Source: Nitrososphaerota archaeon
Lineage (GTDB): Archaea > Thermoproteota > Nitrososphaeria > Nitrososphaerales > JACPRH01
Length of the DNA stretch: 64,000 nt
NCBI GenBank assembly: GCA_023379805.1
Contig: JAMCPI010000017.1
Location: forward strand, 19,977-83,976
Direction of reading: 5' to 3'
The translations under genes and the position numbers were made by a program. The notes below the pieces were generated by a model, which worked only from the letters and a program-made list of their open reading frames with translations, made no database searches and was not told the DNA's origin. Of this stretch, positions 11,818 to 30,281 are shown one piece after another (position 1 is the stretch's first letter; every line of letters begins with the position of its first letter).

Positions 11818-12067
11818 TTAGTTCACTCACCAACTATACACTGGCGCGCAACCGCTCGAACCGGAACAGTAGTAGCAACAGCGACCACGAAAATACCGGC
11901 TGTCAAGAGTATAGCCTCTCACAACTTAACTTGATTAAACTCAACTTAATCTAACTGAAAAATAACCTTCCAACAACATATCTTACAAAGCGTCATCACA
12001 CCTAATCAAATCTCTATAAAAACCAATATAATTTTTGAGTTAACATCCCATCACATAATAAAAAACG

Positions 12068-12100
12068 GTTGTATGGAGGCCGTCTTACCGTACTTTATAT
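12068..12100 (+). promoter_or_regulatory. Class I promoter box + TATA (paralog 1)
   Basis: GTTGTATGGAGGCCGTCTTACCGTACTTTATAT. 25 of 33 positions are invariant with 14478-14510 and 16954-16986. It ends 26 nt before ATG 12126. Confidence 0.6.
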
Positions 12101-12125
12101 CTTTTCAAAATACAGCGTCTATGAA

Positions 12126-14372
12126 ATGTTAGGTCATAAACTAACTCTATATATTGTACTAACCACTCTCTGCTTCAGCGCCTTTATTCCAGCGCTGGTA
12201 TACGCAGCACCACTAGGAATCACCGCTAAAGACTGGGAGCACACCAACGGCGGCTCATGGGCAGGCAACTACAGCCCACAAACCACCATCACCAAAGACA
12301 ACGTGAACAACCTCGAAGTGAAATGGATCTTTCCCGTCTCACAAAGGGCGCTTGGTCCGAAAGGCATCCAAGGTACAGGTCTCATCGAAGGAGCCAACAC
12401 TCCTCCGATTGTGAGAAACGGCAAGGTCTACGCCCAGACCAACTGGCTAAGACTCTACTCACTGGACGCAGCTTCAGGCAAACTGCTCTGGATGTACGAC
12501 TACTCCGCAAACGTCACCGCACTAACCACAAGGGATCCAGTCGTCATCGGCGGCAGCACCCATTCACACGGCTTCAGATACTGGGAGGCAGGCAACATGA
12601 TTCTGCAAGGCGGCCCACTCTGCGACTTCTACGGAGTCGACGCGGACACCGGCAAGCAGAAGTTCTACGTAGCAGATCTCTGCAACAACATTCCGGGAAG
12701 CATCTACAAGTACGTATCAATCATACCTGGCGGCGGACACGAAATCGCCACCTACGAGAAGGGTAAGCAGTTCATCATCTACTTCCCCGGCGGACGCGGC
12801 GGCGCAATTCTCGCAGGCAGAGCATTCGTCGCAGGAATCAACATGGACAACTACCAAACAGCGTGGCGGGTCTACCTGAACCCGCCTTACGACAAAGCAG
12901 AACCCGACTGGGCACTACAATACTGTGATGTAGGCTACTTCCCATACGGCGTATCCTGCAGTGACGTAGTCAAAATGTTTGGACAAGACGCCCTCAAGTA
13001 CGACTGGCAGAAGGAGCCGGGTAAGCCAATGAACGGCTTCAACGGCGTAAGCAGCGGCTGGGGTCAACCAGTAGTCGACGAAGACACAGGAACAGTCTAC
13101 ATCCCAAGTACAGGGAACCAAAGCCCCTACACAAACGTAACATTCAGGCCCGGACCGAACCTCTACGGAAGCACGATCTTAGCAATCGATCTGAACAAGG
13201 GCTCAATAAAATGGTGGCTACAACCACTTTCACACGATCCTTGGGACTATGACTGCAACTGGGGAGGCATCCTCGCAGACGTCCCAGGAACAGGCAAAGT
13301 CTTCGCCAAAGGCTGCAAAGAAGGCATCCTCTACGTAATGAACGCTGCAACCGGCAAACCGGTCTACTGGGTCGACATCATGAAAGACAACCCGCAACCA
13401 ATGGGAAAGAGAACCATAGAAGTACCTGACCCAAGCACCACCACACCTAAAGTCTTGTACAAGGACTCAACAGGAAAAGAATACAGCTACACCTTCGCCG
13501 AATGGATAAAGCTACCTTGGCCAGGATACCCAGACAACCCACAGATCCCTATGAACCCGATAATACTCAACGGCGCATTCCAAATCGACATGTCCTATGA
13601 CCCAGCCACCCAAACACTCTTCCACTACTACGCGTCAGGTGGACAAAGCATACTGAAGCAGAACCCGATCATCGAAGGAAAAGGCATCTGGAGCTCCAAA
13701 ACCGACAACCCACACAACACTACAATCGTAGCCCGAGACATAACAACAGGCAAAATCAAATGGGAGATACCCCCACTACCCTACAACGTCAGAGGACACC
13801 TACTCATAACAGGCGGAATGGTAGTCAGCCCATTGACAGACGGCTACATCCGATTCTACGACGAATCCACCGGCAAAACCCTACGTGAAATGAACCTCGG
13901 CTCCACACTCGTAACCGGAGTCACCACCGGACAAGACTCTAAAGGAGACCAGAAGATATTCGGCATCATCGGACAAACCACACAGATAGGCATAGTCGAA
14001 CCAGGCACCGTATTCGCACTCGGCCTATCCAGCAACAACGCAGGAGGCGGCGCAACCCCACAAACAACCACAGTCACCACAACCGCAACCACCACAACCA
14101 CAACAGTAAGCACCTCAGCTACAACAGTCACAACAACTGCACCGGCTAAAACCGTAACCACGACAAGCGCCACAACCGTCACCGCAACACAATCAGCTCA
14201 AACACAGACAAAGACTACAACAATCACCTCAAGCGCACCAGCACAAACCACCACCGTAACATCATCAATCACACAAAACACCGGACTACCATCGGAAGTC
14301 ACCTACGGAGCGGTCGGAGTAGCAGTAATAGCTCTGATTGCAGCTGCAGCACTGGCGATGCGGAAAAAGTAG
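12126..14372 (+). CDS. Secreted PQQ-dehydrogenase-like beta-propeller, Thr-rich stalk, C-terminal TM anchor (paralog 1, most divergent)
   Basis: The start is moved from 12069 to ATG 12126, because 12068-12100 is the promoter box shared with paralogs 2 and 3. The signal peptide ends ...FIPALVYAAP. Motifs present: NYSPQTTITKDNVNNLEVKWIFP, HGFRYWE, TGNQSPYTNVTFRPGPNLYGSTILAIDLNKGSIKWWLQPLSHDPWDYDCNW. The tail is GLPSEVTYGAVGVAVIALIAAAALAMRKK. Confidence 0.85.
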   Translation: MLGHKLTLYIVLTTLCFSAFIPALVYAAPLGITAKDWEHTNGGSWAGNYSPQTTITKDNVNNLEVKWIFPVSQRALGPKGIQGTGLIEGANTPPIVRNGKVYAQTNWLRLYSLDAASGKLLWMYDYSANVTALTTRDPVVIGGSTHSHGFRYWEAGNMILQGGPLCDFYGVDADTGKQKFYVADLCNNIPGSIYKYVSIIPGGGHEIATYEKGKQFIIYFPGGRGGAILAGRAFVAGINMDNYQTAWRVYLNPPYDKAEPDWALQYCDVGYFPYGVSCSDVVKMFGQDALKYDWQKEPGKPMNGFNGVSSGWGQPVVDEDTGTVYIPSTGNQSPYTNVTFRPGPNLYGSTILAIDLNKGSIKWWLQPLSHDPWDYDCNWGGILADVPGTGKVFAKGCKEGILYVMNAATGKPVYWVDIMKDNPQPMGKRTIEVPDPSTTTPKVLYKDSTGKEYSYTFAEWIKLPWPGYPDNPQIPMNPIILNGAFQIDMSYDPATQTLFHYYASGGQSILKQNPIIEGKGIWSSKTDNPHNTTIVARDITTGKIKWEIPPLPYNVRGHLLITGGMVVSPLTDGYIRFYDESTGKTLREMNLGSTLVTGVTTGQDSKGDQKIFGIIGQTTQIGIVEPGTVFALGLSSNNAGGGATPQTTTVTTTATTTTTTVSTSATTVTTTAPAKTVTTTSATTVTATQSAQTQTKTTTITSSAPAQTTTVTSSITQNTGLPSEVTYGAVGVAVIALIAAAALAMRKK

Positions 14373-14390: not shown

Positions 14391-14427
14391 GACGATCCTG
14401 AACAAGGATCGTCCTCTCGCATTTTTT
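14391..14427 (+). terminator. Conserved hairpin + T-tract (paralog 1)
   Basis: GACGATCCT (14391-14399), loop gaaca, AGGATCGTC (14405-14413), then TTTTTT at 14422-14427. Confidence 0.6.
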
Positions 14428-14477
14428 ATCACTCCCAACTCAATAGCTGCTCAAGGCTTCTTTAGAGCAGGCAAATA

Positions 14478-14510
14478 GTCGTATGGAGACCATCTTACCC
14501 CACCTTATAA
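14478..14510 (+). promoter_or_regulatory. Class I promoter box + TATA (paralog 2)
   Basis: GTCGTATGGAGACCATCTTACCCCACCTTATAA. It contains ATGG-aga-CCAT dyad symmetry and ends 28 nt before ATG 14538. Confidence 0.6.
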
Positions 14511-14537
14511 CGAACTAAAAGAACCAAAAACCTGAAG

Positions 14538-16840
14538 ATGTTATCGAGCAAATATTGGATAACTAACTGTATATTACTTACCGTACTAACATTCAGCACA
14601 TTCGCACCTATACTAGCATACGCAGCACCCCTAGCAACTTCTGACAAGAACTGGCTGAACATGAACGGGAACACCTGGGCATGGAACTACAGCCCGGAGA
14701 CACAGATCAACAAGGATAACGTGAAGAACCTTGAAGTGAAATGGATATTCCCAATAACTAGCATAGCTCAAGCTGGCCCGAAAGGCTATGTATCACTTCA
14801 GCCTGGAGACGGTTCAAGCACACCGCCTATCGTCAGAAACGGCAAAGTCTACATCACGACCAATTACCAGATGATTATTGCACTAGACGGTAAAACAGGC
14901 AAGCAGCTGTGGAAAAACAGCTACGACATAAACCTCACTCAAGCAGTTCAGCGACTACCCTTAACCCCCGCAACCTTCGGCGGAGTACACAACCACGGCT
15001 TCAGATACTGGGAAACCGGAAACGCGCTCATCAACCGCGGCATAGCATGCGACTTCTACGGAGTTGACGCGGACACCGGCAAAACATCATTCTGGGTCCA
15101 AGACCTATGCAAAGACATCCCAGGCAACCTATACAAGTACAACACCGTCTACGCAGGCGCCAAATCCGGCAGCGTCGGAATATACGAGAAAGGTCACCAG
15201 TTCATCTACGTACTCTCAGGCGCAGTACACTCAAGCCTCTCACCCGCAGGCGATGGAAGACATGTCACAATGGGCATCGACACTACAACAAAGAACGTCA
15301 TATGGAGAGTCTTCAGCGCCCCACCCCAAGACGTTCCAACCAAGGACTGGGCACTCCAAGAATGCAGCATAGGATACTTCCAGACACACCCATGCAGCGA
15401 TGTAGCAGCCAAGAACCGAGCCGGGTTAGAATGGGACTGGGCATTACCCGACGCAGCACCAGTCAAGTGGGCTGGCGTAACCGCTAACTGGGGCCAGCTT
15501 GTCGTCGACGAAGACACCGGAATAGTCTACACTAATACAGGCAACCAGGGACCATACTCAAACATGTCAATGACACCTGGACCAAGACTCTACGGTTCAA
15601 CCATAATGGCCATCGACGTGAACGCAGGCAAACGCATATGGTGGCTACAACCCTTCCCACATGATCCCTATGATTATGACTGCAACTGGAGCGGAATACT
15701 AGCTGATGTTAAGGGCTAGGTAAAGTCTACATGAAGGGATGCAAGGAAGGCATTCTGTATGCAATGGACGCTAAGACAGGTAAGCCGGTGTGGACAGCGG
15801 ACGTAGTAAAGGAACAGGTAACATGGGGACAGATCCAAGCTGCCGCAGCCGAACCCCAGCCGAAAGGCATCCGGGCATATCAGCCAGATCCATATAGCTT
15901 CCACGATATGCGTGAGTGGAACTGGATCAGCTACCCAGCCGCAGCCCCAGGCCAAGCCGGCGAGCGCTGCAACCTTCCCTGCGGTCTATATCCGCACTGG
16001 TCAAACGGACTCTTCGGAACAGACCTCTCATACGATCCGGATACCAACACGCTATTCCAATACGCATCTGGACAACAGGTAGCCTTGCTTAAAGAATTCG
16101 GAATGAAGGATGGCGCAAGCCTCATGAGCACCAAAGGATACTCAATATCTAACTCAACCATAGTAGCCCGCGACGCAGCCACTGGCAACGTCAAGTGGAC
16201 ATGGTTCTACAAGTTCAGCACCCAGCGCAGCCACCTAGTTGTAACCAGTGACATGCTTCTTACAGGCTTCACAGACGGCTACATGCGCTTCTTCGACAAA
16301 AGCTCAGGCAAACTCCTCCGCGAAATGAACATCGGCACCCACATGGTGAACGGCTTCACCACAGGCCAAGACTCAGACGGCAAACAGAAACTATTCGGAG
16401 TTATAGGAGTAGGGGACGCAACCGCAGCCCGAGTATATCCAAGCCCAACAGCAGGAGGTGCAGTAATCGCACTAGGACTCTCAGAAACAGCCGGAGGCGG
16501 CGCAGCCCAAACCACCACAGTCACAACCACCTCAGCCACAACAATCACAACCGCAACCACCAGCACCATAACTACAACATCAGCCACAACAGTTACCAGC
16601 GCAACCACTAACACCGTAACCACAACAAGCGCCACAACCGTCACAGCAACACAATCAGCTCAAACACAAACTAAGACAACCACCGCAACGGTTACCTCCA
16701 ATGCGCCAGCTCAAACCACAACAGTAACCTCACAGGTCACTCAAACCACCGGACTACCCTCAGAAGTCACCTATGCAGCAGTCGGCATAGCTGTAATAGC
16801 TATCGCAGGCGCAGCATTCCTAGCAATGCGGAAGAAGTAG
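14538..16840 (+). pseudogene. PQQ-dehydrogenase-like paralog 2, interrupted by a 1-nt frameshift in a G-run
   Basis: ORFs 14538-15719 and 15731-16840 are the N- and C-halves of one paralog. At 15711-15722, aagGGGctaggt has three Gs. A fourth G would read K-G-L-G-K-V-Y-M-K-G-C-K-E-G, matching the family consensus. This could be a true pseudogene, a sequencing error or a slippage site. Confidence 0.6.
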
Positions 16841-16861
16841 ATAGAAACAACAGTAGAAGAA

Positions 16862-16898
16862 GACGATCCTTACAAAGGATCGTCACTTCAAATTTTTT
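16862..16898 (+). terminator. Conserved hairpin + T-tract (paralog 2)
   Basis: GACGATCCT (16862-16870) pairs with AGGATCGTC (16876-16884), followed by TTTTTT at 16893-16898. Confidence 0.6.
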
Positions 16899-16953
16899 CT
16901 CTGCCTAATAAAAGAGATTGTTCGATTTAAGTAGAATCATTTTAAATTATTTG

Positions 16954-16986
16954 GTCGTATGGATACCGTCTTACCCTACCTTATAA
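16954..16986 (+). promoter_or_regulatory. Class I promoter box + TATA (paralog 3)
   Basis: GTCGTATGGATACCGTCTTACCCTACCTTATAA. It ends 26 nt before ATG 17012. Confidence 0.6.
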
Positions 16987-17011
16987 CCCGCGAACCGAAG
17001 CACTGCTCGAA

Positions 17012-19225
17012 ATGTTATCAAGCAAATCTTGGATAACTAACTGTATAATACTTGTCTTATTGACGTTCAGCACATTCGCAACATCACTAGCATACGCAGC
17101 ACCCCTAGCTAACACCGAGAAGGACTGGCAGTACGTCGGCGGAAACTCTTGGGGTTGGCACTACGGCCCACAAACACAGATCAACAAGAACAACGTCGAC
17201 CAGCTCGAAGTAAAATGGCTCTTCCCGATAGGCGGCCAATCGTCGGCGCCCACAGGAATAAAAGCCATACCCGGAATCAGCGACGGAACAGGCACACCCC
17301 CAATAGTCAGAGACGGATCAGTATACGTATTGAACGATTGGGGAACCATGTACGCTGTAGATGCCGGGACGGGCAAACAAAAATGGTCACATGACTATGT
17401 CATCAACATGGACGAATTACGCAAGAAAATACCGGTGGCGCTCGGAGGACTCATGCATACCCATGGATTCAGATACTGGGAAGGTGGAGACGCACTACTA
17501 GCCTATGGTCTGGCGTGCGACTTCTACGGTGTTGACGCCAAGACCGGCAAGGAGAAGCTATGGGTCAAGGATATCTGTAAGGATGTCCCTGGAAACATCG
17601 GTCAATACAGACCTAGCCCATCCAACACCAATATCATCGGAACCTACGAGAAGGGACGCCAATTCATCATTGTCCTGCCAAGCAGGATTCACAGCAACGT
17701 CGCAGAAGTAGCTCCACAGGAATCTAGACACGTCACAATGGGCATAAGCATGGACGCGCCGTACAAAGTATTATGGCGAGTCTTCAGCTCACCACCTCAA
17801 GACGTTCCAACTAAGGACTGGGCTCTACAAGAGTGTAGCATCGGTTTCTTCCGAGAAATACCCTGCAGCGAAGTTGCAAAGGTGAACCAGAAAGGCCTTG
17901 AATGGGACTGGTCGCTTCCGGAACAAAAGCCAGGATATTTCGCCGGTGTCACAGCCAACTGGGGTCAACCCATAGTTGACGAAGACACAGGCATCATCTA
18001 CACCAACACAGGCAACCAAGGACCATACTCAAACGTATCACTAACACCAGGACCACGCCTCTACGGCAGTACCATCATGGCTATCGATATGAATGCGGGC
18101 AAACGTGTCTGGTGGCTACAGCCATGGCCGCATGACTTCTACGACTACGACTGCAACTGGAGCGGAATACTTGCAGAAAGCTCAACCCTCGGCAAAGTCT
18201 ACACATACGGCTGCAAGGAAGGAAGGTACTTCGTGATGGACGCAGCTAATGGTAAACCGAAGCTGGTGGTCGATGTCCGTGGCGACCAGTTAGCTAGAGG
18301 ACAGATATCAGCAGATCCATTCAAAATGGTCTACCAACCAGATCCTAAGAGCTTCTCCGATATGAGAGAATTCAACTGGATCAGCTGGCCTGCTACAAAG
18401 CCGGGTGAGCAGGGTAAGTTCTGTACCTTGCCTTGCACAGTATATCCGAACTGGACCAACGGGATATTCCAGTCGGACAGAGCGTACGACCCTGAGACAC
18501 AGACATACATACTCTACGAAGGAGCCCTCTGGGCACGAGTATTAGCGGAGCACTCCTACTTCCCAGGTGAGCGTAACTACAACGGCGGAAACTTGTTCAC
18601 AACCCAGCGTTCTCAACCCGTCAACACCACGCTAGTTGCCAGAGACCTCGCAACCGGCAAGGTGAAGTGGACATGGTTCTACCAATACAGCTCGCAGCGT
18701 GCCGCTCCGATTGTATCAGGTGGCATGGTCATCACAGGCTGGCCAGACGGTCTCATGAGGTTCTTCGACAAGGACTCAGGCAAACTCATTCGCCAACTGA
18801 CAATCGGCTCACCGATAATAGTTCAACCTACAATCGGCAAAGACTCATCAGGCAATTCAAAGATATTCCTAGTCGCAGGTGCATCAGGCCCCATGGGAGC
18901 TGGAGATGCTAGATACGGAATGCAAGGGCTAACCAGAGTTCCAGGAACACTCATCGCCATAGGCCTCACAGAAAAGGCGGCGACAGAAATCAAAACAAGC
19001 ACAGTCACAACTACTCAGAGCACAACTCTCACAACAACCTCAGCAACCACTCAGACACAGACTACAACAGTCACCTCAAACGCACCAGCTCAGACACAGA
19101 CTACAACAGTAACCTCACAGGTTACTCAAACAACAGGTCTGCCTTCTGAAGTCACTTACGCGGCAGTCGGTATAGCTGTAATAGCCATCATCGCAGCAGC
19201 AGTACTCGTGATACGGAAGAAGTAG
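17012..19225 (+). CDS. Secreted PQQ-dehydrogenase-like beta-propeller with stalk and C-terminal anchor (paralog 3)
   Basis: 737 aa. The signal peptide ends ...FSTFATSLAYAAP. Motifs present: HGFRYWEGGDA, TGNQGPYSNVSLTPGPRLYGSTIMAIDMNAGKRVWWLQPWPHDFYDYDCNW. A Thr-rich linker is followed by the tail GLPSEVTYAAVGIAVIAIIAAAVLVIRKK. Confidence 0.9.
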   Translation: MLSSKSWITNCIILVLLTFSTFATSLAYAAPLANTEKDWQYVGGNSWGWHYGPQTQINKNNVDQLEVKWLFPIGGQSSAPTGIKAIPGISDGTGTPPIVRDGSVYVLNDWGTMYAVDAGTGKQKWSHDYVINMDELRKKIPVALGGLMHTHGFRYWEGGDALLAYGLACDFYGVDAKTGKEKLWVKDICKDVPGNIGQYRPSPSNTNIIGTYEKGRQFIIVLPSRIHSNVAEVAPQESRHVTMGISMDAPYKVLWRVFSSPPQDVPTKDWALQECSIGFFREIPCSEVAKVNQKGLEWDWSLPEQKPGYFAGVTANWGQPIVDEDTGIIYTNTGNQGPYSNVSLTPGPRLYGSTIMAIDMNAGKRVWWLQPWPHDFYDYDCNWSGILAESSTLGKVYTYGCKEGRYFVMDAANGKPKLVVDVRGDQLARGQISADPFKMVYQPDPKSFSDMREFNWISWPATKPGEQGKFCTLPCTVYPNWTNGIFQSDRAYDPETQTYILYEGALWARVLAEHSYFPGERNYNGGNLFTTQRSQPVNTTLVARDLATGKVKWTWFYQYSSQRAAPIVSGGMVITGWPDGLMRFFDKDSGKLIRQLTIGSPIIVQPTIGKDSSGNSKIFLVAGASGPMGAGDARYGMQGLTRVPGTLIAIGLTEKAATEIKTSTVTTTQSTTLTTTSATTQTQTTTVTSNAPAQTQTTTVTSQVTQTTGLPSEVTYAAVGIAVIAIIAAAVLVIRKK

Positions 19226-19236
19226 AAAAAGCAGAA

Positions 19237-19274
19237 GACGATCCTCACAAGATCGTCCTCCCCTTTCTTTTTTT
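19237..19274 (+). terminator. Conserved hairpin + T-tract (paralog 3)
   Basis: GACGATC (19237-19243) pairs with GATCGTC (19251-19257), followed by TTTCTTTTTTT at 19264-19274. Confidence 0.6.
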
Positions 19275-19292
19275 AATCGTAGTAAAAACTTA

Positions 19293-19410
19293 CGCTTCGT
19301 AGCTGGGTGCTGCGGAGGTGGAGTTGTGGCGGCCGCTTCAGACTGGTCAAGTATTTTCCCACGGGTGCAGGAACCGCATGCCTGCGTCCAACACCCACTT
19401 TTCGTTTTTC
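19293..19410 (+). ncRNA. Copy B of the ~100-nt conserved intergenic element (candidate structured RNA)
   Basis: The core is GAGTTGTGGCGGCCGCTTCAGACTGGTCAAGTATTTTCCCACGG. The hairpin is GGGTGCAGG (19363-19371) / CCTGCGTCC (19381-19389). TTTTTTTAAT lies about 25 nt upstream and a T-rich run TTTTCGTTTTT lies downstream. Confidence 0.4.
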
Positions 19411-19569
19411 AGCAGCAAAAGCAAGGCGAATCTTCTAATGCGAATGTAGCGGATCCAGCGAGCCCTGTCTATCGTGCACCCGCCGATATGTAGGTAAGAC
19501 ACATTAGCTGACATCTTCGGTAATCCGAGCTCCTTAAATCAATGTTATTCCTCATTTTAATTCGTACAT

Positions 19570-20299: not shown

Positions 20300-20328
20300 A
20301 GGATACAGATATTTTCTGAAAATAACTT

Positions 20329-22461: not shown

Positions 22462-22474
22462 TAAGTAAAAAGGT

Positions 22475-22511
22475 AGACGATCCTTTAAGGATCGTCTTAC
22501 TCCTATTTTTT
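22475..22511 (+). terminator. Conserved hairpin + T-tract (paralog 4)
   Basis: AGACGATCC...GGATCGTCT (22475-22497), followed by TTTTTT at 22506-22511. Confidence 0.6.
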
Positions 22512-22785
22512 AGGAGATAAAATAGGTTCACAATTGTCCACCTTCTCGAATCAAATTTATCGAATTAACCATTAAAATGTTTCACGAACTCTATATTTCG
22601 ATTCGTCATTATCCTTGTTTAAGAATGGCTGATGCTCGCTACATTATTAGTTCATCCTTGCGCCGCCAGATAATTGTCTTGCCCTTTTCAAAAGAATGTC
22701 AATTCCTTCCATTGGCGACATCAATTCCCAACATATCTAAAATTCTTAATATGGATCGCCGAAAATAAGGTATATACTTCTTCGT

Positions 22786-22800
22786 AAAGTTTATATAAAA
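22786..22800 (+). promoter_or_regulatory. Class II promoter TATA region (paralog 5)
   Basis: AAAGTTTATATAAAA lies 44 nt upstream of ATG 22830. The proximal GAGAATAACTTATGAAGAAT is shared with paralog 4. Confidence 0.55.
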
Positions 22801-22829
22801 ATGCCAATTATAACTACCGAGAATAACTT

Positions 22830-25013
22830 ATGAAGAATGATAGTTATTATCGAGCAACACTAATGTCAATACTCGTAATCCTCGCATTCAGCACTTTCAC
22901 ACCAACACTCGCATTCGCAGCACCCCTCGCCAATAACGACAAAGACTGGCAGTACGTTAACGGTAACAGCTGGGCATGGAACTACAGTCCACAGACACAG
23001 ATCAACAAGGACAACGTCGGCAACCTTGAAGTCAAGTGGATATTCCCTCTTGGAAGCAAAGCGTTAGCGCCGGCAGGCATGCAGGCAATACAAGGGTTTG
23101 CTGAGGGCACAACCACCCCACCGGTTGTTAGAGATGGAACAGTCTTCGTCAACAGCAACTGGGGTAGAATGTACGCCGTTGACGCCGCAACAGGCAAACA
23201 GAAATGGACCTACGACTATGTGCTCAACTTCAGTGATGTACGCAAGAAAATACCCGTGGAAATGGGCGGCATCATACACGACCACGGCTTCAGATACTGG
23301 GAGTCCGGAGATGCACTACTCTCCTACGGTCTAGCCTGTGACTTCTACGGCGTAGATGCAAAGACTGGGAAACAAAAGTTCTGGGTCAAAGACCTCTGCC
23401 TAGATGTACCTGGAAACCTTGGCATATACAGACCTAGTCTAGCCAACAGCGCAGTCATAGGCACCTACGAAAAGGGCCGACAGTTCATCGTCGTGTTCCC
23501 AAGCAGAATCCACAGCAACGTAGCTCAGGTAGCACCGCGCGACTCGAGACACGTCACAATGGGCATCAGCATGGACGCACCATACAAAGTAATGTGGCGA
23601 GTCTACAGCTCTCCACCGCAGGATCAACCCGTCAAAGACTGGGCGATCGCAGAATGTAGCAGCGGTTACTTCCGAGACATACCCTGTACCGAGGCACTAG
23701 CGGCTAACCGCGCAGGACTCGAATGGGACTTCGCACTCCCCAATCAGCCAATCGGCTGGTACGGCGGAGTCACAGCAAACTGGGGTCAACCTGTAGTTGA
23801 CGAAGATACAGGCCTGCTCTACACCCAGACAGGCAACCAAGGACCATACTCCAACATGACACTAGCACCAGGACCAAGACTCTTCGGCAGCACCATAATG
23901 TCCATAGACATGAACGCAGGCAAACGCATCTGGTGGCTACAACCATTCCCCCATGACCCGTATGACTATGACTGCAACTGGAGCGGATTGCTCACAGAAA
24001 ACCCGACGCTTGGCAAGGTCTATGTGTACGGCTGCAAGGAAGGAAGATACTTCGCGATTGATGCAGCTACAGGTAAACCGAAGCTAACTGTCGATGTCCG
24101 TAAAGACCAGTTCGCAAGAGGACAGATCTCTAGCGACCCGTATAAACTCCTCTATGAGCCTGATCCAAGAAGCTACTACGACATGAGGGAATGGAACTGG
24201 ATAAGCTACCCCGCAAAGAAAGTAGGCGAGCAAGGCAAGTTCTGCACCCTACCCTGCACAGTGTACCCGGACTTCTATAATGGCATCTTCGCAACAGACA
24301 GAGCGATAGACCCGCAGACACAAACATACTACCTCCACGAAGACGCGTTGACAGCAAGAATTGACAAGGAACACTCTTACTTCCCAGGAGATGCAAACTA
24401 TGCTGCAGGCAACCTGTTCACCACCTCCAGACCTCTGCCTACCAATAGCACAATCGTCGCCAGAGACCTAGCCACTGGTAAAGTAAAGTGGGTATGGTTC
24501 TTCCCCTACAGTCACCAACGCGCAGCCCCAGTGGTCACCGGAGGCATGGTGTTCAGTGGCTTCACAGACGGATACCTACGCTTCCTAGACAAGGACTCAG
24601 GCAAAATGCTAAACGAGATCGTCGTCGGATCGCCTATCGTAGTCCAACCAACAATCGGCAAAGACTCTCAAGGCAACTCAAAGATATTCGCCATCGTCGG
24701 CGCAACCCGCCTCGCCGGGGCAGCTAACTTCGGACTAGGTGGACAAAGTGATGTACCCGGAACACTAATAGCTCTCGGACTATCCCAGAAAGTCGCAACC
24801 GGAACGACAACAACTGTTACTACCACTTCCGCCACAACTGTTACTAGCACATCAGCTACAACAGTAACCACAGCTGCACCAGCTCAAACTGTGACTTCAT
24901 CGGTCACACAAACCGCGACCACAGGTCTACCAGCAGAAGTCACCTACGGGGCAGTCGGAGTAGCAGTAATAGCTCTGATTGCAGCAGCAGTACTAGTAAT
25001 GCGTAAGAAGTAA
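22830..25013 (+). CDS. Secreted PQQ-dehydrogenase-like beta-propeller with stalk and C-terminal anchor (paralog 5)
   Basis: 727 aa. The body is closest to paralog 3 (shared blocks include IGTYEKGRQFI, SRHVTMGISMDAPYKV, GCKEGRYF). PHDPYDYDCNWSG is present. The tail is GLPAEVTYGAVGVAVIALIAAAVLVMRKK. Confidence 0.9.
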   Translation: MKNDSYYRATLMSILVILAFSTFTPTLAFAAPLANNDKDWQYVNGNSWAWNYSPQTQINKDNVGNLEVKWIFPLGSKALAPAGMQAIQGFAEGTTTPPVVRDGTVFVNSNWGRMYAVDAATGKQKWTYDYVLNFSDVRKKIPVEMGGIIHDHGFRYWESGDALLSYGLACDFYGVDAKTGKQKFWVKDLCLDVPGNLGIYRPSLANSAVIGTYEKGRQFIVVFPSRIHSNVAQVAPRDSRHVTMGISMDAPYKVMWRVYSSPPQDQPVKDWAIAECSSGYFRDIPCTEALAANRAGLEWDFALPNQPIGWYGGVTANWGQPVVDEDTGLLYTQTGNQGPYSNMTLAPGPRLFGSTIMSIDMNAGKRIWWLQPFPHDPYDYDCNWSGLLTENPTLGKVYVYGCKEGRYFAIDAATGKPKLTVDVRKDQFARGQISSDPYKLLYEPDPRSYYDMREWNWISYPAKKVGEQGKFCTLPCTVYPDFYNGIFATDRAIDPQTQTYYLHEDALTARIDKEHSYFPGDANYAAGNLFTTSRPLPTNSTIVARDLATGKVKWVWFFPYSHQRAAPVVTGGMVFSGFTDGYLRFLDKDSGKMLNEIVVGSPIVVQPTIGKDSQGNSKIFAIVGATRLAGAANFGLGGQSDVPGTLIALGLSQKVATGTTTTVTTTSATTVTSTSATTVTTAAPAQTVTSSVTQTATTGLPAEVTYGAVGVAVIALIAAAVLVMRKK

Positions 25014-25032
25014 CCGTAGTAGCAGAAGCATC

Positions 25033-25071
25033 AGGACAATCCCAATGGATTGTCCTTTCCCCTATTTTATT
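25033..25071 (+). terminator. Conserved hairpin + T-tract (paralog 5, compensated stem variant)
   Basis: AGGACAATCC (25033-25042) pairs with GGATTGTCCT (25047-25056). The G-to-A change in the 5' arm is matched by a C-to-T change in the 3' arm relative to the GACGATCC/GGATCGTC consensus. TTTTATT follows. Confidence 0.55.
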
Positions 25072-25084
25072 AGATCATTACGAT

Positions 25085-25185
25085 CACTCCTCGAACGCAG
25101 CAATACCTAGCGGTGGGGTTGTGGCGGCTCACGACAGGCTGGTCACATTTTCCCCACGGGTGCAGGAGCCACATGTCTGCACCCA
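25085..25185 (+). ncRNA. Copy D of the ~100-nt conserved intergenic element (candidate structured RNA)
   Basis: The core is GGGGTTGTGGCGGCTCACGACAGGCTGGTCACATTTTCCCCACGG. The hairpin is GGGTGCAGG (25158-25166) / TCTGCACCC (25176-25184), with 8 Watson-Crick pairs plus a terminal G-U. Confidence 0.4.
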
Positions 25186-25337
25186 AAATTCTTCTATCCA
25201 CTTTTGTGGATCGATCTATCTGATTGAGCATTACTCATGCTGGACGGGTGTCTGTAAAATGGAATTTCTTTCTCCTCCGATTTCATAATTTTGACACCTC
25301 GGTATTACCATTTTCTAGACATCTGCATATTTTTTAC

Positions 25338-25426
25338 TTATTTATGTTAAATTAGGATTATACAAGTTTGTAAATTGGAATTCGAAATATATACGGTACC
25401 AATTCATTTTGCAGAATACTTATATT
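25338..25426 (+). promoter_or_regulatory. Class III promoter (distal box + TATA) of paralog 6
   Basis: The distal box TTATTTATGTTAAATTAGGATTATAC (25338-25363) and the TATA element ACTTATATT (25418-25426) have identical 80-nt and 38-nt spacings to the paralog 7 upstream region (27831/27911/27949). Confidence 0.55.
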
Positions 25427-25455
25427 GCGTATACATCTTCTTGATTTCGAAATTT

Positions 25456-27615
25456 ATGATGTCTATAAGATCACATAAATCTATGATATTGACTGTTCTA
25501 GCGATACTCGCATTCAGCACATTCCTACCCGCACTCGCATTCGCAGCACCAACAGGCGATAACGGCAAAGACTGGATGAACACGAATGGAAACTCCTGGG
25601 CACAGAACTACAGCCCACAAACACAGATCAACAAGAACAACATCAACAACCTAGAGGTGAAATGGCTCTTCCCGCTCGCATCCAAGGGCTTAGCTCCAAA
25701 AGGAATCCAAGCGGCCGGCATCGGCGAAGGAACCACTACACCACCAATTGTAAGAGACGGAAGAGTTTACGTGATCACCAGCTTCATGAAGACCTACGCA
25801 ATCGATGCAAAAACAGGTAAACAGGTCTGGACACACGACTACGACATTGACATCGAAGCAGCAAAGCAGAGATTACCTCTAATGATAGCTGGATCAGTTC
25901 ACAAACACGGCTTCCAGTACTGGGAGGGCGGAGACGCCATCATTAACCACGGACTAGCCTGCGACTTCTATGCACTTGACGCCAAAACCGGCAAGGAGAA
26001 GCTCCGCGTCGAAGACCTATGCAAAGACGTGCCTGGATCACTCTACAAGTATCTAGCGCGTCGACCCGGCGCAGAGCCCAGTATCGGGATCTACGAGAAG
26101 GGTCACCAATTCATCTATGTCTTAGCAGGCTACATGCATAGCAGCCTTACCGCACCAGACGCACGGCACGTCACCATGGGAATCGACATGGACAGCAAGA
26201 ACATCAAATGGAGAGTCTTCAGTGCTCCACCGCAAGATGTTCCAACTAGAGACTGGGCCCTACAGGAATGTGACATAGGCTACTTCCGCGACATTCCATG
26301 CAAAGACGTAGCGGCCAAGAACCTGAAAGGGCTCGAATGGGACTGGGCTCAACCAGGTGAAAAACCAAGCATGTGGGGTGGAGTAACTGCTAACTGGGGC
26401 CAAGCAATAGTTGACGAAGACACAGGCATCATGTACACCAACACAGGTAACCAAGGACCATACTCAAACATGTCAATGACACCCGGACCTCGTCTCTACG
26501 GAAGCACAATCATGGCAATCGACCTAAACAAAGGTAAGAGAGTTTGGTGGCTACAACCCTTCCCGCACGATCCATACGACTATGACTGCAACTGGAGCGG
26601 AATACTAGCTGAAGTCAAGGGTGTTGGCAAAGTCTACGCCAAAGGCTGCAAGGAGGGTATCCTCTACGTGGTTAACGCAGCTACGGGTAAGCCATTGTAC
26701 AAGGTGGATGTGAGAGATGATCAACTAGCAAGAAGGCAGATATCTACGCTAAGCAACAAGGCGTACGCACCTGATCCGATGAGCTACCACGATCTTAGGG
26801 AGTGGAACTGGATTAGCTACCCAGCCACAAAGCCAGGTGAGAAAGGGGAACACTGCACTCTACCATGCTCAATCTATCCAGCCTTCATGAACGGCATCTT
26901 CCAAACCGACATGTCCTATGACCCTGAAACCCAAACATTGATACTCTACGAAGGCGCACTGCAAGTAAACATCCTATCTGAACACCCATATGCCCAAGGC
27001 GCAGAGCTCTTCAGAACCAGCATGTATCCAACTGCGAACACCACAATCGTAGCTAGAGATCTAGCCACTGGCAAAGTGAAGTGGACTTGGTTCTACCAAT
27101 TGAGCAACCAGAGAGCGGCCATGGTAGTATCAGGAGGTACAGTATTCACCGGATTCACTGATGGACAAATGCGCTTCCTAGACAAGGACACAGGCAAGGA
27201 ACTAGGCAAGCTAAGCCTCGGATCACCAGTCCTCGTTCAACCAACTATAGGTCAAGATACAGATGGTAACTCAAAGATATTCGCGGTTGTCGGATCCACA
27301 TCACTCGCCTCAGGACCGCAGTACGGCAATCCAGGACCAACGATCCCAGGAACACTAGTCGCCATCGGCCTGAGTGACAAGGCAGCCCAAATCGTCACCA
27401 GTACATCTACAACTACCGCAACCACTACTGCAATCTCTAGCACCACAGCAACTACAACAGTCACATCAAGTGCACCGGCACAAACTATAACCACATCAAT
27501 CACCCAAACTCAAACCGAGACCTCAGGTCTACCATCAGAAGTAACCTATGCAGCAGTCGGCATAGCTGTAATAGCTATCGCAGGCGCAGCATTCTTAGCA
27601 ATGCGGAAGAAGTAG
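25456..27615 (+). CDS. Secreted PQQ-dehydrogenase-like beta-propeller with stalk and C-terminal anchor (paralog 6)
   Basis: The start is moved from 25375 to ATG 25456. It lies 38 nt after ACTTATATT, as in paralog 7, within the shared TTTCGAAAtTTATG context. The signal peptide ends ...FSTFLPALAFAAP. PHDPYDYDCNWSG is present. The tail is GLPSEVTYAAVGIAVIAIAGAAFLAMRKK. Confidence 0.88.
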   Translation: MMSIRSHKSMILTVLAILAFSTFLPALAFAAPTGDNGKDWMNTNGNSWAQNYSPQTQINKNNINNLEVKWLFPLASKGLAPKGIQAAGIGEGTTTPPIVRDGRVYVITSFMKTYAIDAKTGKQVWTHDYDIDIEAAKQRLPLMIAGSVHKHGFQYWEGGDAIINHGLACDFYALDAKTGKEKLRVEDLCKDVPGSLYKYLARRPGAEPSIGIYEKGHQFIYVLAGYMHSSLTAPDARHVTMGIDMDSKNIKWRVFSAPPQDVPTRDWALQECDIGYFRDIPCKDVAAKNLKGLEWDWAQPGEKPSMWGGVTANWGQAIVDEDTGIMYTNTGNQGPYSNMSMTPGPRLYGSTIMAIDLNKGKRVWWLQPFPHDPYDYDCNWSGILAEVKGVGKVYAKGCKEGILYVVNAATGKPLYKVDVRDDQLARRQISTLSNKAYAPDPMSYHDLREWNWISYPATKPGEKGEHCTLPCSIYPAFMNGIFQTDMSYDPETQTLILYEGALQVNILSEHPYAQGAELFRTSMYPTANTTIVARDLATGKVKWTWFYQLSNQRAAMVVSGGTVFTGFTDGQMRFLDKDTGKELGKLSLGSPVLVQPTIGQDTDGNSKIFAVVGSTSLASGPQYGNPGPTIPGTLVAIGLSDKAAQIVTSTSTTTATTTAISSTTATTTVTSSAPAQTITTSITQTQTETSGLPSEVTYAAVGIAVIAIAGAAFLAMRKK

Positions 27616-27637
27616 TGACCGAAGCAACGGTAACAAT

Positions 27638-27672
27638 GGGCGATCCTTCCGGATCGTCCCCCCTCTTTTATT
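27638..27672 (+). terminator. Conserved hairpin + weak T-tract (paralog 6)
   Basis: GGGCGATCC (27638-27646), loop ttcc, GGATCGTCC (27651-27659) with one G-U pair, followed by TTTTATT. Confidence 0.5.
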
Positions 27673-27682
27673 GGGATATTAC

Positions 27683-27775
27683 ACTTGCTCCTCAAACGCG
27701 GCGATACCTCGCATAGCGGGGGATTGTGTCGGCTTAGATGAATATCCGTGTGACCTTTTCCGCCCTTCCCCGCTT
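27683..27775 (+). repeat. Copy E (degenerate) of the conserved intergenic element
   Basis: CTTGCTCCTCAAACGCGGCGATACCTCGCATAGCGGGGGATTGTGTCGGCT aligns with 25085-25128 of copy D. The 3' hairpin half has eroded. Confidence 0.35.
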
Positions 27776-27830
27776 CCCAAGTTTTGTTATTCTGCCTGTA
27801 TTATCTTCTAAAAGCGTTCTTTTTCTCCGT

Positions 27831-27919
27831 TTATTTATGCTAAATCGGGATTATACTGATCAATAAATTGTCTTCATAATAAGTACGATAATAACCACGT
27901 TTGTAGAAAGACTTATATT
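27831..27919 (+). promoter_or_regulatory. Class III promoter (distal box + TATA) of paralog 7
   Basis: TTATTTATGCTAAATCGGGATTATAC (27831-27856) and ACTTATATT (27911-27919). The spacing is identical to paralog 6. Confidence 0.55.
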
Positions 27920-27948
27920 AATTATGATGAATGTTTGTTTCGAAAATT

Positions 27949-30060
27949 ATGAAACATCTGAAGCCATATAAAGTGACTATACTGTCTATTCTCATAATCC
28001 TCTCATTCAGCACATTCCTACCCGCACTAGCATACGCAGCACCCCTAGCAAACACCGAGAAGGACTGGCAGTATGTTAACGGAAACAGTTGGGGACAGAA
28101 CTATAGTCCCGAGACCCAGATCAACAAGAACAACGTAGGTAACCTTGAAGTGAAGTGGGTCTTCCCCTTCGGCAGTAAAGACTTGGCGCCAGCAGCCATA
28201 AGGGCCCTAGGTGCACAAGAAGGTGTCAACACCCCGCCAGTCGTCCGCAACGGCGTGGTCTACGTAACCAGCAACTACCTCAAAACCTACGCAATCGACG
28301 CAAAGACCGGCGCACAGCTATGGACACATGACTACACCTTCGACGTGGCAGCCGTCAACAAAAGCCTGCCTTGGGCGTGGGGTGGCTTACTCAGCTCGCA
28401 CCTCCACGGTATTAGGTACTGGGAGGGCGGCGACGCCATCCTCTACGAAGGAATGGCCTGCGACATCGTAGCTATAGCTGCGAAGACAGGTAAAGAAAGC
28501 TTCCGAATCAACGATCTCTGCAAGAACATCCCTGGAAGCATCTACAAATACTTCGCCAGCCCGAACGCTCAGGCCAGCCTCGGAACCTACGAGAAGGGTA
28601 AGCAATTCATCATAGTCCTACCCGGTCAAATGCACTCCACAATCTACGCGGGTGACTCGCGACACGTCACGATGGGCATCGACATGAATAGCAAACAAGT
28701 TCTCTGGAAAGTCTTCAGCTACCCACCTCAAGACAAGCCTACTAAAGACTGGGCAACACAAGAGTGCGATATAGGCTACTTCCAAACCTACACATGCAAA
28801 GAGGTAGCGGCAAAGAACCCGTCTCAGCTCGAATGGGACTGGGCTCAGCCTAACCAGCCACCCAACATCTACGGCGGAGTCACAGCTAACTGGGGACAAA
28901 TGATCGTAGATGAAGACACAGGCATCCTATACACTCAGACAGGCAACCAAGGACCATATACAAATGTATCAACTACACCTGGACCAAGACTCTACGGCAG
29001 CACCATCATGGCCATAGACATGAATTCAGGCAAACGCATATGGTGGCTACAACCCTTCCCGCACGATCCATACGACTATGACTGCAACTGGGGAGGCATA
29101 CTAGCTGAAACCAAGTCAATCGGTAAGGTCTACATGAAGGGATGCAAAGAAGGCAGACTCTACGTAATGAACGCGAAGACAGGCCAGCCAATCTACATGA
29201 AAGATGTGCTCCAAGAGCAGATTTCTATCGGCCAAATATCTCCACTCGCTGGAAAGGAGCCTAAGGACGGAGGAGTCAAGTTCCACCTCACAGATCCATT
29301 TAGCGATGACATGAGGGGTTGGAAGTTCGTGACAGACGGCAGAATATGCACGGCTCCATGCAAGCTCTATCCAAGCTACTTCAACGGCATCTTTGCAACA
29401 GACATGACCTATGACCCTACAACCGATACTCTCTACCACTACGCCAACGCATTCATGACATCAATTACTGCGGAGCTTCCAGTTGTCCCAGGTAACAACG
29501 TAGTTGCCACCAAGGACTACTCTCCAACAAATGCCACAATCATTGCTAGAGACGCATCCACAGGAGCAATAAAGTGGAACTACCTCTACAAGACTAGCGC
29601 TCAACGCTCCGCATTGGTAGTGACAAGCGACCTACTCTTCTCAGGCTTCACAGACGGACAAATGAAATTCCTCGACAAATCCACCGGCAAACTACTCAGC
29701 ACAGTCAACCTAGGAGCACCTATCGCAATCGCTCCAACAACAGGCCAAGACTCTGACGGCAAACAGAAGATATTCGTAATCGCAGGCATAACCACCCTCC
29801 CACAGGCCTTCGGTCAAGCCTATGGCGCAACCGGAGCAATCCAACCAGGTGTCCTAGTCGCACTCGGACTATCAGATAAAGCAACAACAGGAGGATCAGT
29901 AACTACCGTAACGACAGCAACCACCCAAACAATTACAACATCAATAACCAACCAAGTCACACAGACCTCAGAAACAATAGGCCCGATCACCTACGGCGCA
30001 ATAGCAGTAGCTGTTATTGCAATCATCGCCGCAGCAGTCCTAGTGATGAGAAAGAAGTAG
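27949..30060 (+). CDS. Secreted PQQ-dehydrogenase-like beta-propeller with short stalk and C-terminal anchor (paralog 7)
   Basis: The start is moved from 27931 to ATG 27949 on conserved promoter spacing. The signal peptide ends ...FSTFLPALAYAAP. Motifs present: HGIRYWEGGDA, PHDPYDYDCNWGG. The tail variant is TIGPITYGAIAVAVIAIIAAAVLVMRKK. Confidence 0.88.
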   Translation: MKHLKPYKVTILSILIILSFSTFLPALAYAAPLANTEKDWQYVNGNSWGQNYSPETQINKNNVGNLEVKWVFPFGSKDLAPAAIRALGAQEGVNTPPVVRNGVVYVTSNYLKTYAIDAKTGAQLWTHDYTFDVAAVNKSLPWAWGGLLSSHLHGIRYWEGGDAILYEGMACDIVAIAAKTGKESFRINDLCKNIPGSIYKYFASPNAQASLGTYEKGKQFIIVLPGQMHSTIYAGDSRHVTMGIDMNSKQVLWKVFSYPPQDKPTKDWATQECDIGYFQTYTCKEVAAKNPSQLEWDWAQPNQPPNIYGGVTANWGQMIVDEDTGILYTQTGNQGPYTNVSTTPGPRLYGSTIMAIDMNSGKRIWWLQPFPHDPYDYDCNWGGILAETKSIGKVYMKGCKEGRLYVMNAKTGQPIYMKDVLQEQISIGQISPLAGKEPKDGGVKFHLTDPFSDDMRGWKFVTDGRICTAPCKLYPSYFNGIFATDMTYDPTTDTLYHYANAFMTSITAELPVVPGNNVVATKDYSPTNATIIARDASTGAIKWNYLYKTSAQRSALVVTSDLLFSGFTDGQMKFLDKSTGKLLSTVNLGAPIAIAPTTGQDSDGKQKIFVIAGITTLPQAFGQAYGATGAIQPGVLVALGLSDKATTGGSVTTVTTATTQTITTSITNQVTQTSETIGPITYGAIAVAVIAIIAAAVLVMRKK

Positions 30061-30076
30061 ACTAAACGTCTACAGT

Positions 30077-30114
30077 AGACGATCCTCCTAAGGGGTCGTC
30101 TCCTCCCTTTTTTT
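30077..30114 (+). terminator. Conserved hairpin + T-tract (paralog 7)
   Basis: AGACGATCC (30077-30085) pairs with GGGTCGTCT (30093-30101) with one U-G wobble, followed by TTTTTTT at 30108-30114. Confidence 0.6.
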
Positions 30115-30281
30115 AAGTCGCCAGTCAATCAACTACCTGTTCGATTATGCTTGTTACAAAAAATGGAGACCTATTCTATGCACTACAGGTTGCGTTGTCT
30201 AACCGTTACCCATTAATATTGGGACGTTAAGAATAGTAATGTTAAACTCTTAATAACAGGTCGGCTGAGGGGAAAAGAATT

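Follow-up and report, generated by a model that had tools for sequence, protein, structure and literature searches.

Soils, groundwater and the deep ocean harbour abundant non-ammonia-oxidising members of the Nitrososphaeria, none of which, to our knowledge, is in culture. Of the published hints at how these archaea derive energy from organic matter, the foremost is the occurrence of gene arrays encoding quinoproteins, dehydrogenases of the pyrroloquinoline quinone (PQQ) type. Heterotrophic marine Thaumarchaeota (HMT, or HMN) carry 4-19 PQQ dehydrogenases per metagenome-assembled genome (MAG), which are very highly expressed (Aylward & Santoro 2020, PMC7300363; PMC13374868). The HMT proteins lack a Cys-Cys dipeptide, possess signal peptides and membrane segments, and contain a DYD motif in 4 of 21 families (PMC7300363). 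The Gagatemarchaeaceae (Group I.1c) encode up to eight PQQ dehydrogenases per genome, the genes for which "tend to be colocalised, often in adjacent pairs or trios", and several of their subfamilies are common with HMT (Sheridan et al. 2023, PMC10640624). Here we describe a stretch of 64,000 nucleotides from a Nitrososphaerota archaeon (assembly GCA_023379805.1, contig JAMCPI010000017.1, positions 19,977 to 83,976; the whole stretch is referred to as the window), the plus strand of which encodes eight co-oriented PQQ-propeller paralogs of 703-767 codons each, designated c1 to c8. These genes probably form an array shaped by birth-and-death evolution and encode functional, extracytoplasmic, membrane-tethered PQQ-type dehydrogenases of a clade centred on the Nitrososphaeria.

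The locus shows the features by which the HMT and Gagatemarchaeaceae expansions are recognised. As in HMT, the host is, by its labels and nearest relative, a non-ammonia-oxidising member of the Nitrososphaeria with many divergent PQQ-propeller paralogs that combine a signal peptide with a transmembrane segment and lack Cys-Cys, and the role proposed is the same, namely oxidation outside the cell that supplies the respiratory chain via quinone or blue copper proteins. In contrast to HMT, which are marine (UBA57), the lineage described here is terrestrial or from groundwater, has a G+C content of ~48-50% and is JACPRH01-like; seven of its copies lie in one co-oriented run, and DYD is present in 8/8 copies rather than 4/21 families. 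Of the two, expression data exist for HMT. The terrestrial, non-ammonia-oxidising thaumarchaeal host and the colocalised copies recall the Gagatemarchaeaceae, although here a run of seven genes is accompanied by one satellite (at least eight plus two in the MAG of a sister species), in contrast to pairs or trios, and the host belongs to another family of the GTDB taxonomy. Promoter classes, a 3' hairpin and an active-site signature such as those reported below are not described for the Gagatemarchaeaceae (PMC10640624). A link to non-ammonia-oxidising Thaumarchaeota had been raised in a sequence-only reading of the window, and it is borne out by the NCBI label ('Thaumarchaeota archaeon') and by the nearest GTDB representative, which falls in family JACPRH01. 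This family is a non-ammonia-oxidising lineage of non-thermal habitats, and the paper describing it makes no mention of PQQ (PMC10833072). Expansion and colocalisation of PQQ dehydrogenases are thus already published for sister lineages (PMC7300363, PMC10640624); new here are the longer run, the clade signature, a cysteine pair, two promoter classes, the 3' hairpin and mosaic gene ends.

Family, fold and predicted active site

All copies match the Pfam PQQ family (PF01011) with E-values of 1e-30 to 1e-41, and c1, c3-c8 and the 5' half of c2 score 106-142 bits, above the gathering score of 26.7. A profile built from 26 family members matches 25 PQQ dehydrogenases of known structure in addition to ExaA (1flg), for which E is 8e-29. 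For c7, an AlphaFold model (pLDDT 73.6, pTM 0.78) was compared with solved structures using Foldseek. The top 30 matches, with E-values of 1e-32 to 1e-26 and target-normalised TM scores of 0.58-0.77, are chains of PQQ alcohol, methanol and sorbose dehydrogenases, and the best TM score is that of XoxF (6dam, 0.77). The first match outside the PQQ dehydrogenases is BamB, at an E-value of 1e-16, which is 16 orders of magnitude weaker. The modelled propeller of c7 resembles those of the solved eight-bladed quinoproteins and its strand pattern fits eight blades. Profile searches and fold comparison, both of which the sequence-only reading had proposed as checks, therefore agree with its assignment to the PQQ propellers. 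Its further comparison with MxaF, XoxF and ExaA holds at the level of the superfamily and no lower, as the Cys-Cys ring is absent and the NCBIfam model for the methanol/ethanol family (TIGR03075) gives only 136-179 bits against a cut-off of 480. The second-best NCBIfam match, acido-empty-quinoprotein group A (TIGR04528), scores 97-127 bits against 650, and membrane glucose dehydrogenase (TIGR03074) 78-102 bits against 833. Judged by these scores, c1-c8 lie outside the methanol/ethanol and glucose dehydrogenase subfamilies.

Active-site residues were mapped by their numbers in HMMER alignments and are given here in c7 numbering. W315 corresponds to W248 of ExaA, which stacks on PQQ, N333 to the metal ligand N266, and D376 to D316, the catalytic base and metal ligand. 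D378 aligns to a Ser in the calcium-dependent ExaA and to an Asp in the lanthanide-dependent PedH, and K400 occupies the position of ExaA R344, so that Lys stands for Arg. In the glucose dehydrogenase of Escherichia coli (Gcd), where H262, W404, D466 and K493 were verified in the sequence, W404, D466 and K493 are the counterparts of W315, D376 and K400, and an Asp is likewise present at +2 (D468, in D-M-D). W315, N333, D376, D378 and K400 are invariant among the 26 family members. A search of 1.84 billion cluster representatives gave 143 matches at E <= 1e-30, followed by a steep drop in score, and 39 diverse representatives of this wider clade were compared. The active-site residues other than the Asn are kept in 31-37 of the 39, the Asn being replaced by Gln in most wider-clade members, and H-x-H, W315, D-x-D-C, C-K, R238 and R553 are retained throughout the membrane-anchored clade.

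The segment that aligns to the Cys-Cys region of known enzymes carries an invariant H-x-H-G motif. The sequence DYDC occurs in 8/8 copies, and its cysteine (C379) is matched by that of the C-K motif (C399): both are present in 34 of the 39 representatives, neither in five, and in no case is there a single one. This perfect co-occurrence argues for a disulfide beside the catalytic residues. Both H-x-H-G and the covarying cysteine pair appear, from these alignments, to be specific to the clade. The distant relative P0250 retains the Cys-Cys pair as well as a D-F-D-C ... C-K pair.

The type I alcohol and methanol dehydrogenases (ExaA 1flg, PedH 6zcv/6zcw, XoxF 6dam/6oc5/4mae and MxaF 1w6s) share with these proteins the predicted fold, the stacking Trp, the metal-binding Asn, the catalytic Asp and, as predicted for c1-c8, export by Sec, and the D-x-D motif is as found in their lanthanide-dependent members. 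The differences are considerable: identity is ~18-22%, there is no Cys-Cys, the active-site Arg gives way to Lys and the C-C-x4-R-G region to H-x-H-G, the Glu ligand was not located, a C-terminal anchor contrasts with the soluble periplasmic form, neither a small subunit nor a cytochrome cL partner was evident, and TIGR03075 scores are below 40% of the cut-off. E. coli Gcd is similar in having no Cys-Cys ring (His262 being found instead), in its Lys, D-x-D and aligned stacking Trp, and in being membrane-bound, but its five N-terminal helices with a quinone site contrast with the cleavable signal peptide and single C-terminal helix found here. The acido-empty-quinoprotein group A proteins are also homologs of PQQ enzymes in organisms without known PQQ synthesis; unlike them, the present proteins conserve the catalytic residues, and they score below the group's cut-off.

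Export and membrane anchoring

The N-terminus of each protein comprises a short basic stretch, a hydrophobic core and a signal peptide end of the form A-[YF]-A/A-P, where the slash marks the end of the signal peptide. Neither a twin-arginine motif nor a haem-binding motif (CxxCH) is present in the copies. At the C-terminus, a linker of 30-85 residues (55-60% Thr and Ser) leads into the conserved motif GLP[SA]E[VI]TY, a stretch of ~20 hydrophobic residues and a terminal RKK; the motif reads TIGPITY in c7, and the tail of c4 is QKK instead of RKK. The mature proteins contain an even number of cysteines (six or eight) and 4-5 N-glycosylation sequons. The GLPxExTY-helix-RKK layout merely resembles a sorting signal: all NCBIfam cut-offs for CTERM sorting models are missed, the best match being PGF-CTERM (16-19 bits, cut-off 24.5), which extends over no more than the helix and basic tail. 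As it falls below every curated sorting-signal model, we name the C-terminus a membrane anchor, for which a sorting function is possible. The sequence-only reading had called these proteins secreted; a signal peptide is indeed present on each, but the C-terminal transmembrane helix and RKK indicate that they are tethered to the membrane and not released.

A gene for an AglB/STT3 oligosaccharyltransferase (40241-42427, minus strand) lies between the array and the satellite copy c8, and is relevant here because the dehydrogenases bear 4-5 sequons and a Thr/Ser-rich stalk. In the wider clade (P0135-P0148 and P0170) the stalk is composed of short charged repeats (KEVIKEVPKEV or PGPERVVEVEV) and is not Thr-rich, so that it is conserved as a feature and not in sequence.

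Organisation and history of the array

Listing and translation of open reading frames (ORFs) reproduced the eight co-oriented paralogs of the sequence-only reading at the coordinates given in Table 1. Copies c1-c7 form a run of seven genes over ~18 kb, the sole interruption being a hemerythrin-like gene, as had also been noted. The protein motifs quoted in that reading were all found in the alignment (FSTF.P.LA[YF]A/AP, KDW..NGN.W, HGFRYWE, TANWGQ..VDEDTG..YT.TGNQGPY, PGPRLYGSTIMAID and PHDPYDYDCNW). Multiple alignment of the eight copies gives amino-acid identities of 46-79% between pairs, the closest being c4/c6 (79%) and c3/c5 (70%). The outlier is c1, which is 46-52% identical to the others and carries HSHG, DYDC and GCKEG. 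The proteins of c3 and c8 are identical to NCBI entries MCL4437285.1 (locus tag M1503_08305) and MCL4437310.1, respectively. For c1 and c7 we prefer the start codons given in the earlier reading over upstream TTG or ATG alternatives, which are disfavoured because they lie upstream of, or too near, the TATA box.

Table 1. Coordinates of the PQQ-propeller genes, the hemerythrin-like gene and their 5' and 3' elements in the window
Feature	Position	Strand	Remarks
c1	12126-14372	+	748 aa; Pfam PQQ E 1.6e-36; class-A promoter
c2	14538-16840	+	767 aa with one T restored; -1 frameshift; class-A promoter
c3	17012-19225	+	737 aa; Pfam PQQ E 1.1e-30; class-A promoter
Hemerythrin-like gene	19570-20067	+	165 aa, without signal peptide; PF01814 E 4.5e-7
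c4	20329-22461	+	710 aa; Pfam PQQ E 1.7e-34; class-B promoter
c5	22830-25013	+	727 aa; Pfam PQQ E 1.7e-31; class-B promoter
c6	25456-27615	+	719 aa; Pfam PQQ E 8.4e-41; older duplicate, c4 lineage
c7	27949-30060	+	703 aa; Pfam PQQ E 3.6e-41; copy used for structure model
c8 (satellite)	45244-47367	+	707 aa; Pfam PQQ E 1.9e-33; 15 kb downstream of array
Class-A box, c1	12067-12089	+	GGTTGTATGGAGGCCGTCTTACC; abuts TATA box 12094-12101
Class-A box, c2	14477-14499	+	TATA box 14504-14511
Class-A box, c3	16953-16975	+	TATA box 16980-16987
Class-B TATA box, c4	20289-20296	+	TTTATATA; octamer before ATG
Class-B TATA box, c5	22790-22797	+	
Class-B TATA box, c6	25419-25426	+	
Class-B TATA box, c7	27912-27919	+	
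Class-B TATA box, c8	45205-45212	+	
3' hairpin, c1	14391-14413	+	GACGATCC-loop-GGATCGTC; then C/T-rich tract and oligo-T
3' hairpin, c2	16862-16884	+	
3' hairpin, c3	19237-19257	+	
3' hairpin, c4	22476-22496	+	
3' hairpin, c5	25035-25054	+	GACAATCC..GGATTGTC; compensatory variant
3' hairpin, c6	27639-27658	+	
3' hairpin, c7	30078-30100	+	
3' hairpin, c8	47385-47411	+	AGCGATCTCTC-GTAA-GAGAGATCGTCT; extended variant

One copy departs from the description in the sequence-only reading. A paralog is present at the coordinates of c2, but it is not a single open frame in the window: a -1 frameshift leads to an in-frame TAG at 15717-15719, and the reading frame resumes in another frame. A second assembly (GCA_023481325.1, contig JAMCWH010000017.1, labelled 'MAG: Thaumarchaeota archaeon') aligns to window positions 15484-29122 over 13,640 bases with no mismatch and a single gap, which is the T missing from c2 (AAGGGCTAGGT in the window, AAGGGCTTAGGT in JAMCWH010000017.1); in the latter, c2 is intact with 767 residues. 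Since c2 has been under the same constraint as the other copies (a ratio of non-synonymous to synonymous divergence, dN/dS, of 0.10), the lesion would be an error in the sequence or else a null allele of very recent origin.

The array is also found in the sister species, the GTDB representative 'Thaumarchaeota archaeon NC_groundwater_674' (JACPRH01; contigs including L002 and L004). A syntenic 33-kb contig (L004) carries three copies, a hemerythrin-like gene and then five copies. The hemerythrin-like gene of the sister species (L004 9123-9620) takes the equivalent place in the array and is identical in 140 of 165 residues. Downstream of c7, the region 30617-37950 (TFS, PCNA, primase subunits and GINS) is collinear with the sister contig bearing the c7 ortholog. 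Contigs break inside the array in all three assemblies, JAMCWH010000017.1 ending in c7 and L002 and L004 beginning or ending in a copy. Diverged repeats break short-read assemblies in this manner. The bodies of the paralogs are ~50-80% identical in nucleotide sequence, and collapse or duplication by the assembler is ruled out because the copies are too dissimilar. An assembly artefact, which the sequence-only reading had allowed for, is excluded by the second assembly, which agrees base for base apart from one base, by the sister synteny and by the collinear c7 flank.

A TATA-like octamer lies 32-40 nt ahead of the ATG in every copy, and two classes of promoter can be distinguished. The class-A box is 23 nt long (GGTCGTATGGAGACCGTCTTACC), includes GGTC-N7-GACC and, in the window, abuts the TATA box of c1-c3 only (three matches at <=3 mismatches, 0.00 being expected). 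It is also found ahead of 11 PQQ-dehydrogenase genes of the sister species, namely the three upstream of the hemerythrin-like gene (L004 g1-g3) and eight at other loci. Class-B octamers are located 37-40 nt before the ATG, and the upstream context of c4-c7 is common to the sister copies downstream of the hemerythrin-like gene (L004 g4-g7). As the promoter classes divide at the hemerythrin-like gene in both species, the array consists of two sub-arrays with this gene at the boundary, and the sequences suggest that class A and class B may represent two regulons. Relationships among the gene bodies do not track the promoter division, c3 being nearest to c5. A scan for sigma-70 promoters gave no more matches than shuffled sequence did, which is to be expected of an archaeal host.

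At the 3' end, a hairpin (GACGATCC-loop-GGATCGTC) is located 11-25 nt past the stop codon of every copy and is followed by a C-rich tract (CCTCCC) and oligo-T. The exact pattern has three matches against 0.00 expected. Taken over both genomes, 28 instances give a predicted 9-bp stem with compensatory changes in five of the nine pairs, and the hairpin is also present in sister loci L002, L004, L007, L008, L010, L011 and L016. The stem sequence has been kept across paralogs with synonymous divergence (dS) >1. No such hairpin follows other genes of the window, including the hemerythrin-like gene, and an Rfam scan of the window found no RNA family, either at the hairpins or elsewhere. Conceivable roles for the element are transcription termination, stabilisation of the mRNA or, as a palindrome, protein binding.

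The ends of the genes are far more alike than their bodies. Nucleotide identity between c2 and c3 is 84% over the first 90 nt (30 codons), and c2 and c6 reach 96% over their final 90 nt (16751-16840 and 27526-27615), compared with ~50-75% for the bodies. The ends have accordingly been homogenised separately, a pattern suggestive of local gene conversion affecting the segments for the signal peptide and the anchor.

Age and selection were estimated from the four copies with one-to-one orthologs in the sister species: c2 (ortholog L004 g1, 86-93% identity, dN/dS 0.10), c4 (L004 g5, 92%, 0.085), c5 (L004 g7, 87%, 0.09) and c7 (ortholog in L002, 89%, 0.15). Across these pairs dS is 0.54-0.81. Two paralog pairs have dN/dS of 0.11-0.16, and dS exceeds 1 between the closest paralog pairs, c4/c6 having a dS of 1.38 and a dN/dS of 0.11. 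In pairwise BLAST, c6 is ~75% identical to both c4 and the sister g5 (the corresponding figure for c4 in the multiple alignment being 79%); this near-equal distance, together with the dS of 1.38, places the c4/c6 duplication before the split of the species. Close orthologs of c1, c3, c6 and c8 were not found in the sister contigs compared, and several sister copies have no counterpart in the window. Comparison of the two genomes thus describes birth-and-death evolution under purifying selection. The sequence-only reading had favoured an old, maintained expansion over a fresh amplification, and the syntenic sister array, with orthologs 86-92% identical and dN/dS of 0.09-0.15, supports this view.

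Across 16 loci, all-against-all comparison of 402 flanking ORFs showed ABC ATPases and a GMC oxidoreductase as the only recurrent neighbours. The window itself opens with the C-terminal part of a GMC-type oxidoreductase (1-831, plus strand), truncated by the window start, the sister ortholog of which (L005 18214-20043) is on a contig with several PQQ-dehydrogenase genes. The sister genome has two additional PQQ-dehydrogenase genes between the orthologs of window genes 2227-2763 and 4052-4585. Defence and toxin-antitoxin-like genes are found on the flanks of the array. Neighbouring genes include those for a 983-aa N6-methylase/Eco57I-like protein (5048-7999, minus strand), a PIN-domain ORF (10451-11041) adjoining a MazE/AbrB-like ORF (11060-11431, minus strand), an AbiEii-like nucleotidyltransferase with its upstream partner (31634-32961, minus strand) and a fusion of a MarR-type helix-turn-helix domain to a Pol-beta nucleotidyltransferase (4228-4854, minus strand). 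A 454-aa NUDIX-IF-2B fusion protein (53784-55148, minus strand) resembles the step that a Nudix hydrolase plus ribose-1,5-bisphosphate isomerase are proposed to provide in the form III RuBisCO pathway of heterotrophic marine Thaumarchaeota. No tRNAs were found in the window.

Cofactors, rival explanations and significance

For functional, membrane-tethered dehydrogenases, the explanation we consider probable, a predicted quinoprotein fold, conserved catalytic residues, export and anchor signals, separate transcription units and selection are all evident at the locus. The apoenzymes would be exported unfolded via Sec and would fold on the outer face of the membrane, binding PQQ and a metal ion (either a lanthanide or calcium) there, in a predicted active site comprising W315 for stacking, N333, the catalytic D376, D378 and K400. 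A range of alcohols, aldehydes or sugars would be oxidised outside the cell, the paralogs differing in substrate, and electrons would pass to the respiratory chain, most likely via small blue copper proteins or the quinone pool. These acceptors are favoured because the copies have no haem motif, because distant relatives are PQQ propellers fused to plastocyanin/azurin-type cupredoxin (P0250 and P0271) or cytochrome c domains (P0256 and P0261), and because this route has been proposed for the marine relatives (PMC7300363). Environmental PQQ might be captured, which is plausible because several bacteria with PQQ enzymes have no pqq genes and scavenge the cofactor (PMC12124388); no importer would be needed, since the enzyme sits outside the cell.

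Several observations weigh against functional dehydrogenases of this kind. We know of no member of the clade that has been characterised enzymatically, none of the copies joins any curated NCBIfam subfamily, scores being far under the cut-offs of TIGR03075 and TIGR03074, and the pLDDT of the c7 model is only 73.6. No copy contains a CC dipeptide, and the vicinal Cys-Cys ring is therefore absent. The N-terminal Glu that contacts PQQ is replaced by a variable Thr or Asn, and the metal-binding Glu (ExaA E179, MxaF E177) was not located in the alignments; it is unplaced because residues ~193-300 aligned to no solved structure, and the near-invariant D236 is a candidate metal ligand. Among the Pfam-scanned ORFs of the window there is no pqq-like gene, and neither a PqqA-like peptide nor an N-terminal CxxxCxxC radical-SAM motif was detected in the window, which agrees with the absence of pqqA-E noted in the sequence-only reading. 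In related archaea the evidence for PQQ synthesis is a lone pqqC homolog (PMC7300363 supplements); a gain of pqqC has been inferred in the ancestor of the mesophilic clade, in a paper whose supplements hold no pqq table (PMC10640624). The window likewise contains no cupredoxin or cytochrome gene, and neither recurs as an electron-acceptor neighbour among the 402 flanking ORFs.

Some of these points would equally suit "empty" quinoprotein homologs, that is, surface propellers without PQQ that serve a structural, adhesive or ligand-binding role on a glycosylated stalk, as in S-layer glycoproteins. Besides the unlocated Glu ligand, the lack of pqq genes in the window and the failure to reach any curated PQQ-enzyme cut-off, TIGR04528 is the second-best NCBIfam match, and the Thr-rich linker and anchor weakly match PGF-CTERM and the C-terminus of the Haloferax S-layer glycoprotein. 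The TIGR04528 scores, however, are also far under their own cut-off, the lack of pqq genes is shared with the bacteria that scavenge PQQ, and invariance across the deep clade is concentrated at W315, N333, D376, D378 and K400, which a scaffold would not need. We therefore regard such propellers as improbable. It is extremely unlikely that the array reflects misassembly or the very recent amplification of a single gene: contigs that end within copies could be taken as a sign of this, but it was rejected on the divergence of the copies (protein differences of 21-54%, with dS >1 for the closest pairs), the identity of the second assembly over 13.6 kb, the four one-to-one orthologs (86-92%) in another species with the hemerythrin-like gene equally placed, and the collinear flank downstream of c7.

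If the proteins are dehydrogenases, it is possible, though somewhat doubtful, that they depend on lanthanides and are an archaeal counterpart of XoxF, ExaF and PedH, with Ln3+ held by D376, D378, N333 and an acidic residue such as D236. D-Y-D in 8/8 copies places an Asp at the lanthanide-specific position of PedH and XoxF, where the calcium-using ExaA has Ser, and D-x-D is kept in most of the wider clade. XoxF 6dam is among the best fold matches (target-normalised TM 0.77), DYD was noted earlier in four marine thaumarchaeal variants (PMC7300363), and a 2026 preprint describes 3D-1N as a non-canonical lanthanide motif with a predicted site in a Nitrososphaerales protein (10.64898/2026.07.14.738520). 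Nevertheless, D-x-D is no proof of lanthanide use, because the non-lanthanide glucose dehydrogenase of E. coli aligns D466-M-D468 to it; moreover, the fourth ligand was not located in the alignments and the window showed no partner resembling xoxJ/xoxG or lanmodulin. The more far-reaching proposal, that these proteins represent a distinct, Nitrososphaeria-centred class of quinoproteins using a lanthanide and environmental PQQ outside the cell, we consider rather unlikely. Such a class would be defined by H-x-H-G in place of Cys-Cys, the covarying cysteine pair of D-[YW]-D-C and C-K next to the catalytic Asp and the Lys, a stalk with a C-terminal anchor, and arrays with two promoter classes under separate regulation and the family-specific 3' hairpin.

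The locus leaves the published picture of quinoproteins in these archaea unchanged. With eight copies that are intact or nearly so, it is a clean and well-assembled example, and it supplies a clade-defining residue signature, two candidate regulons and conserved 5' and 3' elements. These are useful starting points for work on the expression of an archaeal quinoprotein and on its possible need for a lanthanide or scavenged PQQ. Should both a lanthanide and captured PQQ prove to be used, these would be the first lanthanide- and PQQ-dependent enzymes shown in the Archaea, and these archaea would depend on cofactors made by bacteria.

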